DNA of 52,480 nt from a virus (lineage: Duplodnaviria > Heunggongvirae > Uroviricota > Caudoviricetes): the IMG/VR virus record IMGVR_UViG_2740892112_000005; one strand, given 5' to 3'. Each line of letters starts with the position of its first letter. Position 1 is the stretch's first letter. The notes under the pieces were generated by a model. The model was not told the origin of the DNA. It saw nothing but the letters and a program-made list of their open reading frames with translations, and did no database searches. Made by a program: the position numbers and the translations under genes. Shown piece by piece: positions 36,355-47,556 of the stretch.

Positions 36355-36528
36355 TTATTCCCGAACTACCTTGAAACCGAGTCTTTCCAAGTATTCAATG
36401 AATGCCTCAACAGATAACACTACATGATCATCAGGAATTAACGCTGTGTAGGTAATACCCCCATTCTCAACGCGCACAGCATAGAGGCCATCTTCACTAA
36501 AAATTTCACGTAATTCTTCGATTTTCAT
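36355..36528 (-). CDS. small hypothetical protein (AT-rich)
   Basis: 57 aa from internal Met MKIEELREIF with GGAAGGA RBS; candidate TTGAAG-18-TAGAAT promoter upstream. Confidence 0.35.
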   Translation of the reverse strand: MKIEELREIFSEDGLYAVRVENGGITYTALIPDDHVVLSVEAFIEYLERLGFKVVRE

Positions 36529-36660
36529 CAACAGAATCCTTCCAGATAAATAGCACTCCCCCTGTTCGGGGTCCATCCCTCTTCTCCCTGCGCGCTACTT
36601 AAGTATTTTTGATTCTATTCTGGCACCGTCCAAAACTTCAAACACGTTGAAAATAAAAAC

Positions 36661-36683
36661 AAAAAACCCGCCGAAGCGGGTAT
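36661..36683 (-). terminator. intrinsic terminator ending the AT-rich two-gene cassette; copy 1 of a duplicated hairpin
   Basis: On - strand: CCCGCTTCGGCGGG hairpin + TTTTTT directly after the peptidase stop; same 21-nt sequence recurs at 38497-38517. Confidence 0.5.
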
Positions 36684-36685
36684 AC

Positions 36686-37792
36686 TCAAACAATCTGGAA
36701 AATATTTCTTGGATTTGTAATAGGTCTGTTGATGGAGAACAACTCACGAATTAAATCTTGGCTCAAGCCAGTTTTCATAAGAATTCTTAGCCAGGTTGCA
36801 TCATCCAGCATTTCAATCGCCTCGGCCAGCATGCCGGGTTCTTCAGGGCGCAAAAGTTCATCACCAGGTTCAACTCTCGTATACCCTCTGGAATTAAGAT
36901 GCATATAGCCAGTTCTTGCCTGTTCCTGGGTCAATAAGCCTAATGCGCTGGCTCGATAAATACACATTTTAAGGCTGATTTTCCATCTAAGTTTAAATTC
37001 AACCAGAGCATTCCAGTCGAATTGCTTACCTCGTATTCGTGGAAATTCTTTAATGAAAGATAACCTGGGAACTAATAAGGCGCTCGAAAAGTGATCGGCT
37101 TGTGATTCCGTAAGTTTATCACCTGTCGTTATGCCCTCATGCATTACTAAATGCCCTAATTCATGACCTAAATCAGAGCGAAATCTACATATGCTTTTTT
37201 TAACATTGTTCCTGATGATAACAGGCCTGTTATTGTGAACAGTAAAAGCATCAACACGATCATCGACTCCCGTAACATGCGCAACGATTACCCCTAAACT
37301 CTCCGCCAATTTAACCATTGATGATATAGGGCCAAGACCTAAATTCCAGGCACGGCGACAATCTTCTGCCACTCGCTCAATATCATTCGGAGTAAGTAAT
37401 TCAGCCCCTGGGTGCTCCGGTATGTTAACGTCAGGAAATTCGATTTCACCTTCAACAGCAGAAATTATAATATTAAGAATCTCAGCCCTGGCCAATACAC
37501 TATTAGTCAGCGTTTGAGTCCTGGACTTCTTACTCCGAAAATGGCAGACATCACTTTCCAGAGCGTATTTTCGTTCAGTAAAAAGAAAACTGGACTTAAT
37601 CATAAGCGCTGAAGATATTAACTCAAGACATTGCTCCGATGGCCTGCACCCCTTCTCCAGTTTGCTAACGAATTGCTTTGTCTTGCCAATTTTTTCGGCT
37701 AACTCTTCACAAGAAAGCCCAACAGCCATTCTCGCTAGTTTGAGCTTATCACCCCGATACTCAGTGAAGTTATTCACCTGATGTTCCATCAC
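36686..37792 (-). CDS. fused XRE-family HTH / ImmA-IrrE (COG2856, M78-like) zinc metallopeptidase
   Basis: N-terminal HTH (…LSCEELAEKIGKTKQFVSKLEKG…), HEXXH motif (HELGHLVMH) in the middle; AT-rich. Confidence 0.7.
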   Translation of the reverse strand: MMEHQVNNFTEYRGDKLKLARMAVGLSCEELAEKIGKTKQFVSKLEKGCRPSEQCLELISSALMIKSSFLFTERKYALESDVCHFRSKKSRTQTLTNSVLARAEILNIIISAVEGEIEFPDVNIPEHPGAELLTPNDIERVAEDCRRAWNLGLGPISSMVKLAESLGVIVAHVTGVDDRVDAFTVHNNRPVIIRNNVKKSICRFRSDLGHELGHLVMHEGITTGDKLTESQADHFSSALLVPRLSFIKEFPRIRGKQFDWNALVEFKLRWKISLKMCIYRASALGLLTQEQARTGYMHLNSRGYTRVEPGDELLRPEEPGMLAEAIEMLDDATWLRILMKTGLSQDLIRELFSINRPITNPRNIFQIV

Positions 37793-38420
37793 TGCTCACA
37801 TCCAAATCTTTATCCTTCGTACGCCGACGAAGAGGCACCTTATTAATCTCCGCTTCGTCAGGGAGTGTGTTATAATCAAGAGGCATAAGCGGCATCGATG
37901 CTGTAGATTGATGAGAAACTATACTAATCTGAGCACCATAAGTATTAAATCCAACAAGAGCTACCTCCCAACGAGGCAGTGTGGACTCTAATTCACCATC
38001 GCCCTCTTCGGATAAAAAAGGCTCAGCTATGACTCGCCATGTAATATCTTGCTCAGCCTCAACATCACCAAACAATGAGAGCTGCTCATACTCTACTTTA
38101 TTTCGACGCAGACGATGTTTCTTTTTGGGGTTATTAATGCAATCTTTGGTAAATTGTAGCGGAACTTTATTTAAAGCAACTACATAGTCCAACCCCTTGG
38201 AAATCATCTCAAGGCCAGGAATTGCATCTTCATTTTGAATAAGATGATTTCTGACCCAATCATAAGCCCTTACACCTTCAGACCAGTTGCTGTCTAATGC
38301 GTGCTTATGATAGTACAGCTGCTCAAGTACGTTAGCGATCTCCGCCAACAAGTGGCGAACATAGTTTTCAGCAAGATAAGGTTGAAATTCCCAACAAGGA
38401 GCTAACTGATTTTCATTCAT
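37770..38420 (-). CDS. hypothetical 216-aa protein, upstream partner of the HTH-peptidase gene (candidate effector/toxin)
   Basis: Stop overlaps partner start by 23 nt; no recognisable motif; AT-rich; candidate TTGACA promoter upstream at about 38479-38484. Confidence 0.45.
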   Translation of the reverse strand: MNENQLAPCWEFQPYLAENYVRHLLAEIANVLEQLYYHKHALDSNWSEGVRAYDWVRNHLIQNEDAIPGLEMISKGLDYVVALNKVPLQFTKDCINNPKKKHRLRRNKVEYEQLSLFGDVEAEQDITWRVIAEPFLSEEGDGELESTLPRWEVALVGFNTYGAQISIVSHQSTASMPLMPLDYNTLPDEAEINKVPLRRRTKDKDLDVSSDGTSGE

Positions 38421-38496
38421 TTCAAGTTTCGCTTTTTTTAGAATTCGTAAACCACATATTTTCGCATTTTTCTATTTTTGTCAACCAGACTAATGC

Positions 38497-38517
38497 AAAA
38501 ACCCGCCGAAGCGGGTT
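38497..38517 (-). terminator. intrinsic terminator after hok-type gene; copy 2 of the duplicated hairpin
   Basis: CCCGCTTCGGCGGG + TTTTT on - strand. Confidence 0.5.
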
Positions 38518-38585: not shown

Positions 38586-38741
38586 TTACTCCTCAGGTTC
38601 GTAAGCTGTGAAGACAGCGACCTCCGTCTGGCCGGTTCGGATTCGTACCTCGCAGAGGTCTTTCCTCGTTACCAGTGCCGTCACAATGACGGTTAAACAG
38701 ATGACGATCAGGGCGATTAGCATCGCCTTTTGCTGCTTCAT
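38586..38741 (-). CDS. hok: Hok-family type I toxin (hok/gef-like); the longer in-frame ORF to 38798 may correspond to the mok-like upstream frame
   Basis: 51 aa MKQQKAMLIALIVICLTVIVTALVTRKDLCEVRIRTGQTEVAVFTAYEPEE; AAGGAGA RBS; Hok family hallmark TM + C-terminal Cys/charged tail. Confidence 0.8.
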   Translation of the reverse strand: MKQQKAMLIALIVICLTVIVTALVTRKDLCEVRIRTGQTEVAVFTAYEPEE

Positions 38742-39032
38742 AGCCTGCTTCTCCTTGCCTTTCGGCACGTAAGAGGCTAACCTACGTGTGTAGAGCATAG
38801 ATATGGCCTCAGATTAATGTTAAGCGTCTTGCCGGACGCGTAATGTTAACTGGGGCTTTTCTCTATCTGCCTTTTGGTGTTCATGCCTGAGACAGATAGC
38901 CTCAAGCACCCGCTGCAATTCTACTTAACTCTCCTTTTCCCGCAAACCGTTTTTATCCCCAGCGGCAAATCGAATACACCACCAGCGCCACCGCCATCGC
39001 AATTCCTACCGTTGTTAATGCTTCAGGCCAGG

Positions 39033-45344: not shown

Positions 45345-45609
45345 GAATCAACTCCGATGCATTTGGTGTGTTAGCCTTGAATCCAACAGGTAAGCCGTCG
45401 GTTGGATTCGGGTAAATATCAGGCCGGAGTTCATGAGGTGTAACCTCGAAATTCGTTACTTCAGCAACACGTAATGCTTTTTCAGGGCTGAATCTTTCAT
45501 AGCCCCCCAGCACTCGACTTACATGCACCTGAGATAAACCCGTTAGCTTCCCAAACTGTAGCTGGGTGATATGTTTCTCTTTTAAATAGTCTCTTAAGTT
45601 CATAGCCAA
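45328..45609 (-). CDS. ydaS: Cro-like HTH regulator (YdaS-like)
   Basis: 93 aa, HTH ...ITQLQFGKLTGLSQVHVSRVLGG...; divergent from repressor. Confidence 0.65.
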   Translation of the reverse strand: MAMNLRDYLKEKHITQLQFGKLTGLSQVHVSRVLGGYERFSPEKALRVAEVTNFEVTPHELRPDIYPNPTDGLPVGFKANTPNASELIHENQA

Positions 45610-45710
45610 CCTTCTACGTTATGCCTCGAGCAAATATTAGCCCCGCTAATTTTAAAGATCAATAGCCAGACTATCTTTGATAATATTGGTAAAACAAATA
45701 AACTCTATGT
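45610..45710. promoter_or_regulatory. immunity-region divergent promoter/operator region
   Basis: On - strand TTGATC-17-TAATAT upstream of ydaS-like gene; imperfect inverted repeats (ATCAATAG / CTATCTTTGAT). Confidence 0.45.
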
Positions 45711-46172
45711 ATGAAAAAAACACGCGAAGTGATTGCAACTCCAGAAGCGAGCAAGAATTTAAAAGCCGCATGGAATGCAAGAAAAAAAGAGCTGAAGCTG
45801 ACTCAAGAGCTGGCGGCTGAGTTGTTGGGATTCGAATCTCAAGGCACCGTTAGCCAGTATCTGAACGGCAAGATACCGGTAAATACCGACGCTGCGCTAA
45901 AATTTGCGGCTCTGTTAAAGGTAAAACCAGAGGACATTCGAGAAGACCTTAAAGACTTAATGAATTATGTAAGATCATCAGATACTTATGATGATAACTT
46001 TTCAGGCAAAGGATGGAGGCTGGTCAATGAAGAACAGGCAGAGTTACTTAACCTCTTCGAGATTCTACCTGCGTCAGAAAAAGCCAAACTCCTTAACCAG
46101 CTACGTGGACTAAACAAGCTCTACGAGGAAGCCTTCGAGAACATGCTGGCACTAAAGAAACGTAACCAGTAG
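45711..46172 (+). CDS. prophage repressor, DicA/RacR-like XRE-family HTH protein
   Basis: 153 aa; N-terminal HTH (…LTQELAAELLGFESQGTVSQYLNG…), C-terminal LLNLFEILPASEKAKLL similar to DicA C-terminus. Confidence 0.7.
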   Translation: MKKTREVIATPEASKNLKAAWNARKKELKLTQELAAELLGFESQGTVSQYLNGKIPVNTDAALKFAALLKVKPEDIREDLKDLMNYVRSSDTYDDNFSGKGWRLVNEEQAELLNLFEILPASEKAKLLNQLRGLNKLYEEAFENMLALKKRNQ

Positions 46173-46196
46173 CCACCGCTCACTACCCCATCCACA

Positions 46197-46228
46197 ACAA
46201 AAAAACCGACGTCTTAGTCGGTTTTTTT
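46197..46228 (+). terminator. intrinsic terminator after repressor gene (A-run upstream makes it potentially bidirectional)
   Basis: AAAAACCGAC GTCTTA GTCGGTTTTTTT. Confidence 0.5.
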
Positions 46229-46325
46229 GTGCCATAACTTCTGCAAATCAGCTGTATAACTAATATTTTTCCCTTGAAAAAACATTTACATAGTTACCAA
46301 ATCAAAAATATCATACGCCATACTG

Positions 46326-46354
46326 TTGACTTAAAATATCCGCGTTACTAATAT
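46326..46354 (+). promoter_or_regulatory. early-left promoter (TTGACT-17-TAATAT)
   Basis: Direct read; upstream of small-gene operon leading to DicF/dicB/exonuclease/xis/int. Confidence 0.5.
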
Positions 46355-46425
46355 TTCTATCAAGAACAGCACGGCGCTGTAGGTTTTAGTTCCGCCACCC
46401 GGCGTTAAGGGGAAATGAGGTCAGC

Positions 46426-46581
46426 ATGGATACTATCGAGCTTGGCAACAACGAATCTCTGGTGTACGGCGTGTTTCCCAACCAGGACGGCACATTCACC
46501 GCGATGACGTATACCAAAAGCAAAACGTTTAAAACCGAAAATGGTGCCCGTCGCTGGCTGGAAAGAAACTCAGGTGAGTGA
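46426..46581 (+). CDS. small hypothetical protein (51 aa)
   Basis: MDTIELGNNESLVYGVFPNQDGTFTAMTYTKSKTFKTENGARRWLERNSGE; GGGGAAATGAGG upstream. Confidence 0.35.
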   Translation: MDTIELGNNESLVYGVFPNQDGTFTAMTYTKSKTFKTENGARRWLERNSGE

Positions 46582-46582
46582 T

Positions 46583-46711
46583 ATGGATTTCGACACAATC
46601 ATGGAAAAGGCTTACGAAGAATACTTCGATGGTCTTGCCGAAGGCGAAGAAGCTCTCAGCTTCAGTGAATTTAAACAGGCGCTTTCCAGTTCGGGAAAAT
46701 CTAACGGCTGA
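46583..46711 (+). CDS. small acidic hypothetical protein (42 aa)
   Basis: Starts 2 nt after previous stop. Confidence 0.3.
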   Translation: MDFDTIMEKAYEEYFDGLAEGEEALSFSEFKQALSSSGKSNG

Positions 46712-46740
46712 TAAGCGAAACAGCACCGCGAGGAATCAGT

Positions 46741-46980
46741 ATGCAGAAACGAGAACCCGTCATCATCGCGCCAGACTATACCGATGATGAACTTTATGAG
46801 TGGATGCGCCAGAAAATTAATGCAGTGCAGGATCTGAAATGGGCCAATGAAGCCAGGACTAAGCAGGCTGAAAATCTGTCCGCTCTGGAGCAGGATATCA
46901 CCAGGCTGGAAAAAAGCAGCGGCATTAAGCATTGCCAGAATGGTTACATACCCACGTTAATAGCTAACCAACGAGGCTAA
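46741..46980 (+). CDS. hypothetical early protein
   Basis: 79-aa ORF. Confidence 0.4.
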   Translation: MQKREPVIIAPDYTDDELYEWMRQKINAVQDLKWANEARTKQAENLSALEQDITRLEKSSGIKHCQNGYIPTLIANQRG

Positions 46981-46982
46981 TA

Positions 46983-47303
46983 ATGGAATTTAAAGATTTA
47001 CCAATGCCATTCCAGGAAATGGCAGCGAATATAGTTCGTTCCCAACTGGCGACTCTTGACCTGAGTACCGTAGAAAAAGAAACCATCGATACTATATCCG
47101 GTAACGTGCGTCGTGCCTTTATCGGTCTGTACGAAGAGAAGCAGCTCTCTGATAACCAGGATTTACATGAAAAATACTTCCTGGATCTAATGGACATCAT
47201 TGATAAGGGGTTTGGCTTGTTAATGAAAACGAAAGGGATTCGAATAGAACCCCTTGAAAATTACTTTGCAACAAAAAGCATTAATTCTTTTGATTCAAAA
47301 TAA
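46983..47303 (+). CDS. hypothetical early protein
   Basis: 106-aa ORF starting 3 nt after previous stop. Confidence 0.4.
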   Translation: MEFKDLPMPFQEMAANIVRSQLATLDLSTVEKETIDTISGNVRRAFIGLYEEKQLSDNQDLHEKYFLDLMDIIDKGFGLLMKTKGIRIEPLENYFATKSINSFDSK

Positions 47304-47556
47304 GAGAATTAATTACAGACTTAACATGCTCTTTCTCATGATTGAAGCTCTCATGATTGAAAGTGCCGGGTTGAAGCGAGTCGATATAATCAACAAGACT
47401 CTGTCGTACGACTTCATTTTTATCCATAACAGATGCAAGAAATGAAATTGCTAAAAGAGTTATATCACTACGCGCCGCAGCATGCTGCAATGCTTTATCA
47501 AAATTATTAATCTGGCGTATCAGGGAGTTAATGATTTCATCATTTTCAGTCGACAT
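47281..47556 (-). CDS. hypothetical 91-aa protein encoded antisense to the early-left operon
   Basis: Start at internal Met MSTENDEIIN with AGGAGGG RBS; AT-rich body; no motif recognised. Confidence 0.4.
   Translation of the reverse strand: MSTENDEIINSLIRQINNFDKALQHAAARSDITLLAISFLASVMDKNEVVRQSLVDYIDSLQPGTFNHESFNHEKEHVKSVINSLILNQKN

Follow-up and report, generated by a model that had tools for sequence, protein, structure and literature searches.

The two-gene cassette described here occupies positions 36682-38496 of a 52,480-nucleotide stretch of viral DNA (Caudoviricetes; IMG/VR record IMGVR_UViG_2740892112_000005), the whole of which we call the window. We identify it as probably a RosmerTA-type toxin-antitoxin and anti-phage defence cassette, carried as a self-contained moron of a lambdoid Escherichia coli prophage. 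The assignment to a known kind of system is based on the antitoxin, on the gene arrangement and on catalogue models that match both genes. Rosmer was described as a Zn-peptidase antitoxin combined with a toxin of unknown function that gives defence against phages, and a ΔrmrA version of the verified system could not be transformed (Millman 2022). A later study characterized these systems as diverse toxins combined with an ImmA-protease antitoxin, often with an N-terminal helix-turn-helix (HTH), and validated the RosmerTA of Gordonia phage Kita, whose toxin depolarises the membrane (Ernits 2023). Because Rosmer is in essence an antitoxin paired with diverse toxins, a toxin that is not homologous to the verified RmrT is not disqualified from membership. 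The genes of the cassette and the main features of the antitoxin are as follows.

37770..38420, minus strand: rmrT, an open reading frame of 216 amino acids encoding a predicted soluble toxin without a Pfam domain.
36686..37789, minus strand: rmrA, encoding a predicted antitoxin/regulator of 367 amino acids (368 amino acids from the GTG at 37792).
About 37577-37753, minus strand: XRE-type HTH of rmrA (Pfam HTH_3).
About 36947-37264, minus strand: M78/ImmA-IrrE metallopeptidase domain of rmrA (Pfam Peptidase_M78).
37151..37165, minus strand: predicted HEXXH zinc-binding/catalytic motif of RmrA, HELGH at residues 209-213, read from the sequence within GHELGHLVMH.
37106-37108, minus strand: probable third zinc ligand of RmrA, E228, read from the sequence ESQAD.

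RmrA consists of the HTH_3 domain (residues 17-63), the Peptidase_M78 domain (residues 177-282) and a C-terminal region of ~85 amino acids beyond it. It matches the PADLOC RmrA model PDLC03943 with an E of 6.2e-105, as well as 13 further RmrA models, and gives weaker matches to the PADLOC capP and capH models. The RmrA of the verified E. coli OLC-716 system (the sequences of which were taken from the supplementary table of Millman 2022) is 29% identical to it over ~300 residues (E 2e-35), and the HELGH...ESQAD residues of our protein align with HELGH...EQDAD of the verified one. The NCBIfam model of the spr1629-family antitoxin also aligns with RmrA, at residues 12-356 against 2-368 of 377 (E 1.5e-45), with a score of 155.9 bits that lies below the 335-bit curated equivalog cutoff (NF052239/NF052238 RipAB family); judged by its sequence, RmrA is a homologue and not an equivalog of the spr1629 antitoxin.

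The partner of RmrA is recognized by the same catalogue, where the PADLOC RmrT model PDLC03929 covers practically the full length of the 216-amino-acid protein (E 4.6e-25, residues 7-209 against 5-195 of 198), and by PHROG 5786 (E 8e-85). The initial annotation, made from the letters of the DNA, had called this protein unrecognisable and the pair a candidate for an undescribed system; neither statement survives, as PADLOC names both genes and RosmerTA is already catalogued. Its functional reading, in which a toxin is kept in check by a fused HTH/protease within a toxin-antitoxin-like moron beside hok, was right in kind and agrees with the RosmerTA literature, and the XRE-type HTH and HEXXH motif that it pointed out correspond to the two Pfam domains of RmrA, with HELGH intact.

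The gene arrangement is that of the verified system. The OLC-716 RosmerTA likewise has the toxin gene first, followed by an overlapping downstream gene for an XRE-HTH and M78 antitoxin of ~370 amino acids, and likewise resides on a mobile element; it differs in that its toxin belongs to another family than the RmrT described here. The overlap between rmrT and rmrA is 23 nt if rmrA starts at the GTG, which was the figure given in the initial annotation for these two minus-strand genes, and 20 nt with the ATG at 37789, one codon after the GTG, which is the start of rmrA in RefSeq records with identical sequence. An overlap of 20 nt is found in the gene calls of three of the four other genera, and in Xenorhabdus it is 14 nt.

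Separate searches for rmrT and rmrA in 5,426 complete E. coli genomes returned the same 237 genomes (4.4%), including 042 and ABU 83972, and the cassette itself is likewise present in 237; 224 of the 238 records are at least 99% identical. In every one of the 237 genomes the coverage of rmrA is 80% or more. Among the matches listed, disruptions were found in rmrT only, namely an IS5 element in FDAARGOS_1249 (NZ_CP069459.1) and a gap of ~140 bp in PS1Thumoskin9 (NZ_CP180607.1), and both strains retain an intact rmrA. An HTH-M78 gene lies directly after the toxin gene in 8/8 relatives (25-84% identity) with downstream sequence available. The relatives reside in lambdoid prophages of Xenorhabdus, Enterobacter, Buttiauxella and Serratia, and also in a Vibrio-type integrase island, a RecT/YqaJ phage and a Tn7-like element. 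The comparison of gene neighbourhoods that had been proposed with the initial annotation finds the pair together, within E. coli as well as in the relatives. The Serratia cassette is located between Q and the holin gene and not in the nin region, and this difference in position indicates that the cassette moves as a unit. No match to the cassette (blastn) or to the toxin (tblastn) was obtained in 50,697 deposited phage records.

The cassette also appears to bring its own promoter, whose elements are the following.

38443..38486, minus strand: cassette promoter region, with a -35 element, a -10-like element and two flanking direct repeats.
38484..38479, minus strand: -35 element TTGACA, a perfect match, 64 nt upstream of the rmrT ATG.
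38461..38456, minus strand: -10-like element AAATAT, after a 17-nt spacer.
38486..38476 and 38453..38443, minus strand: direct repeats GGTTGACAAAA and GGTTTACGAAT, ~33 bp apart, a candidate RmrA operator.

The TTGACA directly upstream of the pair, already pointed out in the initial annotation, belongs to a GTTGAC that is invariant in 8/8 related cassettes, with toxin identities of 25-100%. In these cassettes the -10 element is AAATAT, GATAAT or CATAAT after a spacer of 16-17 nt, and a second copy of GTT(G/T)AC(A/G)AA follows ~33 bp downstream in six of the eight; on both strands of the whole window this motif occurs only three times. The 80 nt upstream of rmrT are kept as part of the cassette across the related loci. 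We infer an autonomous σ70 promoter with two direct-repeat half-sites to which the HTH of RmrA would bind, giving autorepression. The AAATAT element matches the -10 consensus at 3/6 positions only, which is why a consensus scan missed the promoter. Just before the rmrT ATG (38421-38442, minus strand) lies a leader, AAAAAAGCGAAACTTGAA, which is near-invariant in E. coli, Enterobacter, Buttiauxella and Serratia and has no clear Shine-Dalgarno sequence; it may reflect translational control. The initial annotation had also suggested a link to the SOS response. We rejected SOS control of the cassette since its promoter has no LexA box, the sole LexA-like palindrome being inside the rmrA coding sequence. 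This palindrome is a perfect CTGT-N8-ACAG at 37227-37242 (codons TVHNNR) with no promoter nearby; the chance expectation for the 2.2-kb stretch is about 0.03 matches of this kind.

Four points weigh against the RosmerTA reading. Neither at the sequence nor at the profile level does RmrT resemble the verified RmrT of OLC-716 (BLASTP E 7; 2% probability in hhalign between the two family alignments), and because of this dissimilarity the toxicity and defence attributed to the locus rest on extrapolation via the antitoxin and the arrangement of the genes. That members of this toxin family are toxic and protective would follow by analogy with the verified systems. The two toxin-only disruptions agree with an antitoxin whose loss cannot come first; two disruptions of rmrT against none of rmrA are, however, not significant (roughly p = 0.13 given the gene lengths). 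Finally, the -10 element is weak and the repeats are a candidate operator only. The possibility that RmrT is a distant relative of the verified RmrT was considered and rejected on the same negative BLASTP and hhalign comparisons. In the searchable literature we found no experimental test of this RmrT subfamily, and the RefSeq protein accessions of the pair are mentioned in no paper.

RmrT belongs to a small family, with 37 cluster representatives at E ≤0.001 among 1.84 billion. It has no match in Pfam, in NCBIfam (E up to 1) or among PDB sequences, and it is not matched by the NCBIfam model of the spr1630 ClpXP-sensitive toxin, which does detect a staphylococcal Rosmer toxin. An AlphaFold2 model based on a 36-sequence alignment (predicted local distance difference test (pLDDT) 79.8, predicted template modelling score (pTM) 0.70) has a predicted α/β fold of two helices and six strands with a disordered C-terminal tail, and the only long helices predicted, 18-37 and 45-62, lie within the α/β core. 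A Foldseek comparison of the model with the PDB and with viral structures gave no significant match. One alternative, which we consider unlikely, takes the cassette to be a RosmerTA with a nuclease toxin, in which RmrT would be a degenerate PD-(D/E)xK fold that cuts DNA or RNA once freed from RmrA. The phage-borne RmrT-RmrA pair of Gordonia phage Kita also has an ImmA-type antitoxin; its toxin has a predicted C-terminal membrane segment, whereas the C-terminus of the RmrT described here is modelled as unstructured. The tail comprises residues 196-216 (37773-37835), where the pattern LRRRxKDxDLDVxxNGTSGD is kept in close relatives and the RR pair throughout the family; it could act as a degron or be a site that RmrA recognises or cleaves.

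Two other well-studied pairs, ImmR/ImmA of ICEBs1 and CapH/CapP of the cyclic-oligonucleotide-based antiphage signalling system (CBASS), share the XRE HTH and M78/ImmA-IrrE domains with RmrA, and one could therefore suppose that the HTH-M78 protein is an ImmR/ImmA-like switch for prophage induction and that the 216-amino-acid protein is an accessory factor and not a toxin. The domain content is indeed that of ImmR and ImmA fused in one protein, and the weaker capP/capH matches point the same way. We nevertheless regard this explanation as highly improbable: ~8 kb from the pair the prophage carries an immunity region of its own (cI-like, YdaS and YdaT genes), the pair is found in the nin region (or in the Q/holin interval in Serratia) and also on non-phage elements, and related prophages lack the pair entirely. 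The two known pairs differ from ours in that repressor and protease are encoded by separate genes and are fused here, and in that their partner is an integrase or a CBASS operon, whereas here the partner is an upstream toxin-like gene among hokD and nin-region genes, with no CBASS or integrase operon nearby.

With RosmerTA as the preferred identification, a short motif offers a clue to the possible target of RmrT. The consensus β-clamp-binding pentapeptide is QL[S/D]LF, and a hexapeptide form, QLxLxL, is found for example in Hda as QLSLPL.

38070..38084, minus strand: QLSLF, residues 113-117 of RmrT, an exact match to the consensus β-clamp-binding pentapeptide, with a putative function.

In the 36-sequence family alignment QLSLF is the second most conserved block of five residues, and a loose clamp-binding pattern is fitted by 30/36 family members, whose variants fall into the pentapeptide class (QLTLF, QLPLF, QISIF, QYELF) and the hexapeptide class (QLSLPL, QFVLPL, QLNLAF). 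On one side of the motif is a basic PKKKHR patch and on the other an acidic linker that varies in length; at residues 111-120 the model has a pLDDT of 65, against >90 in the core. When RmrT was compared by hhalign with the toxins of four other Rosmer loci (single sequences), none of the alignments was significant, and for two of them the top local alignment was the PKK...QLSLF segment. We then surveyed 14 toxins, comprising those beside RmrA homologues in 12 phage or prophage records, the RmrT described here and the verified RmrT; in a thirteenth record, Paenibacillus phage Dash, no toxin gene adjoins the RmrA homologue upstream. A clamp-like motif is present in 5/14 of these toxins, with a shuffle rate of ~5.6% per protein, and in 1/13 RmrA controls. 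The carriers are the RmrT described here (QLSLF) and the toxins of Zymomonas (QLSLF), phiCD27 (QLSFF), an Enterococcus phage (QYNLF) and OLC-716 (RmrT, QLKLDL).

The clamp has already been implicated in one Rosmer-family system. The toxin RipA (Spr1630) of Streptococcus pneumoniae binds DnaN, with suppressors in the hydrophobic pocket of the clamp, in a 2025 paper that names no binding motif (PMC12795458). RipAB (Spr1630/Spr1629) resembles our pair in that its antitoxin model aligns end to end with RmrA, and QLSLF would give RmrT the same target, DnaN; it differs in that RipA-family members have no canonical QLxLF. We therefore propose, tentatively and as a possibility of less than even standing, that RmrT docks through QLSLF in the hydrophobic cleft of DnaN, the β sliding clamp, and stalls replication, as reported for RipA. 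Four considerations speak against the clamp proposal. The motif pattern was defined after the sequences were known. The modelled helix 108-115 takes in the first three residues of the motif, so that its hydrophobic residues may be merely structural. No canonical motif is present in a staphylococcal RipA-family member (an NF052238 match) and its relatives, these being the only relatives returned by a homologue search aimed at S. pneumoniae RipA. Lastly, conservation of the motif is merely average in the OLC-716 RmrT family.

Links between such toxins and the ClpXP protease are seen in two Rosmer systems. RipAB makes clpX essential (PMC12795458), and the NCBI name of the RipA family is 'ClpXP-sensitive toxin'. 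A prophage toxin-antitoxin system of E. coli E101 makes clpP essential (Rousset et al.), a study that Millman et al. cite as an example of the Zn-peptidase-antitoxin configuration; the position of the E101 suppressor T46S corresponds to threonine 46 of OLC-716 RmrT, beside the invariant T47, which hints that the E101 toxin belongs to the OLC-716 RmrT family. SocAB may serve as a working analogy for a clamp-binding toxin under the control of proteolysis. In Caulobacter crescentus the toxin SocB reportedly blocks the β clamp and SocA is said to hand SocB over to ClpXP; SocA is not known to be an HTH-M78 protein and no homology is expected.

Taken as a whole, the proposed mechanism would begin with an RmrT that is toxic and an RmrA that neutralises it, both steps being carried over from the family literature. 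Acting through its HTH at the two GTTKAC repeats, RmrA probably keeps the conserved promoter repressed. The toxin would be freed by phage infection, or by a failure of the control by RmrA or ClpXP, and once free it would lead to cell arrest or to a block of phage replication before progeny are made. In the clamp variant of this scheme, QLSLF of RmrT would occupy the hydrophobic cleft of DnaN and replication would stall.

The position of the cassette in the prophage is defined by two copies of a terminator-like hairpin.

38497..38516, minus strand: upstream hairpin copy (ACCCGCTTCGGCGGGTTTTT on the minus strand), an exact 20-nt repeat called as terminator-like, where the hokD transcript terminates; 5' boundary of the cassette.
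36662..36681, minus strand: downstream hairpin copy, an exact 20-nt repeat 4 nt past the rmrA stop, which forms the 3' boundary.

The exact 20-mer AAAAACCCGCCGAAGCGGGT occurs twice in the window, at these two positions, with none expected in shuffles; both copies score as minus-strand intrinsic terminators (ACCCGCTTCGGCGGG followed by a T-run), and the cassette boundaries coincide exactly with the repeat. The initial annotation had described a 21-nt hairpin on both sides and had taken it as a sign of insertion at a terminator by recombination. The duplication stands, with an exact repeat of 20 nt, and so does the insertion, whereas the value of the repeat as evidence of recombination is diminished. 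The 20-mer is present in at least 120 DNA stretches from many genera, and as a generic terminator sequence its identity on both sides is weaker evidence for recombination than it appears. In the Buttiauxella prophage the identical hairpin is found after rmrA but not upstream of the cassette, which argues that the terminator travels with the cassette. On these two grounds the duplicated hairpin was downgraded as a recombination scar. The insertion itself is documented by the empty site: when the flanks were joined around a single hairpin and used as a query, a contiguous match was found in 68 E. coli genomes, and in E. coli 025542-1 the two flanks adjoin with a single hairpin copy between them. 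The 1,835-bp cassette is thus an insertion relative to otherwise near-identical prophages, and the empty site is stronger evidence of this than the repeat.

The same slot holds other cargo elsewhere. In E. coli 61_150228 it contains a Doc-family toxin gene and a small upstream gene between two hairpin copies. Escherichia phage Tritos has a different Rosmer pair in this slot, between hokD and the DUF968 gene. The RmrA of the Tritos pair is 32% identical to the one described here and the toxin matches other PADLOC RmrT models; a hairpin of the same kind flanks the pair, and its promoter starts with the same CTGGTTGACAAA. The position behind the hokD terminator has accordingly been seen empty and with this pair, the Doc-family gene or the Tritos pair, the filled states being bracketed by a similar hairpin. 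These alternative contents bear on the idea that the cassette is an addiction or stabilisation module only, which would make loss of the prophage lethal and have no role in defence. A toxin-antitoxin architecture beside a second post-segregational killer, hok/sok, the Doc-family toxin gene with its small upstream gene in the same slot of other prophages and the nearly clonal state of the cassette in E. coli (the 224 of 238 records mentioned above) all suit this idea. We still judge it improbable, since verified Rosmer systems (OLC-716, Kita) defend against phages and the family also occurs on small islands and Tn7-like elements, locations in which defence genes are typical cargo; moreover, addiction and defence are not mutually exclusive.

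The surroundings of the cassette agree with a lambdoid prophage. The neighbouring gene is annotated as hokD in RefSeq and a sok match is found at 38736-38911 (Rfam, 117 bits), which together indicate a genuine hok/sok locus. In E. coli 042, which has an identical stretch, the cassette lies between replication genes and the genes for DUF968, RusA and the Q antiterminator. As placed by these sequence comparisons, the site of the cassette is the nin region of a lambdoid E. coli prophage, directly after the hokD terminator. The cassette has a GC content of 0.415 against 0.522 for the whole window, and no other 1,815-bp segment of the 52-kb window (50-nt steps) is as low, which bears out the AT-rich stretch of ~1.8 kb seen at the outset. 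The second most AT-rich part of the window, at ~45550-47450 with a GC content of about 0.42, corresponds, as judged from its colinearity with E. coli 042, to the immunity region of the prophage and contains a cI-like HTH gene, a DUF1391 gene, ydfB and ydfC. Directly downstream of the cassette is an open reading frame of 73 amino acids (36355-36576, minus strand). In RefSeq only 75 nt of this frame are annotated, as a partial pseudogene; genomes with the empty site have the frame too, which places it outside the cassette.

As a system the cassette adds little to what is known, RosmerTA having been in defence catalogues since 2022 and both genes being labelled by PADLOC models. It does represent a common E. 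coli variant of Rosmer (4.4% of complete genomes) with a toxin family distinct from the verified RmrT, and its residual interest lies in the clamp-binding-like motif of RmrT and in the slot for cassette exchange behind the hokD terminator. QLSLF provides a direct lead to the target of a Rosmer toxin, the sole known target so far being that of RipA, DnaN. The hokD-terminator site, with its clean filled, empty and alternatively filled states, provides a natural example of moron exchange in lambdoid phages. A broader proposal, which we consider less likely than not, is that the RmrT family, and possibly several sequence-unrelated Rosmer toxins, are β-clamp poisons acting through QLSLF or QLxLxL, and that the hokD-terminator hairpin is a hotspot of cassette exchange. 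If the first part is true, Rosmer would block replication as a defence against phages that need the clamp of the host, under the control of an HTH-protease antitoxin and perhaps of ClpXP; if the second is true, toxin-antitoxin and defence modules would swap behind a shared promoter start in lambdoid phages.

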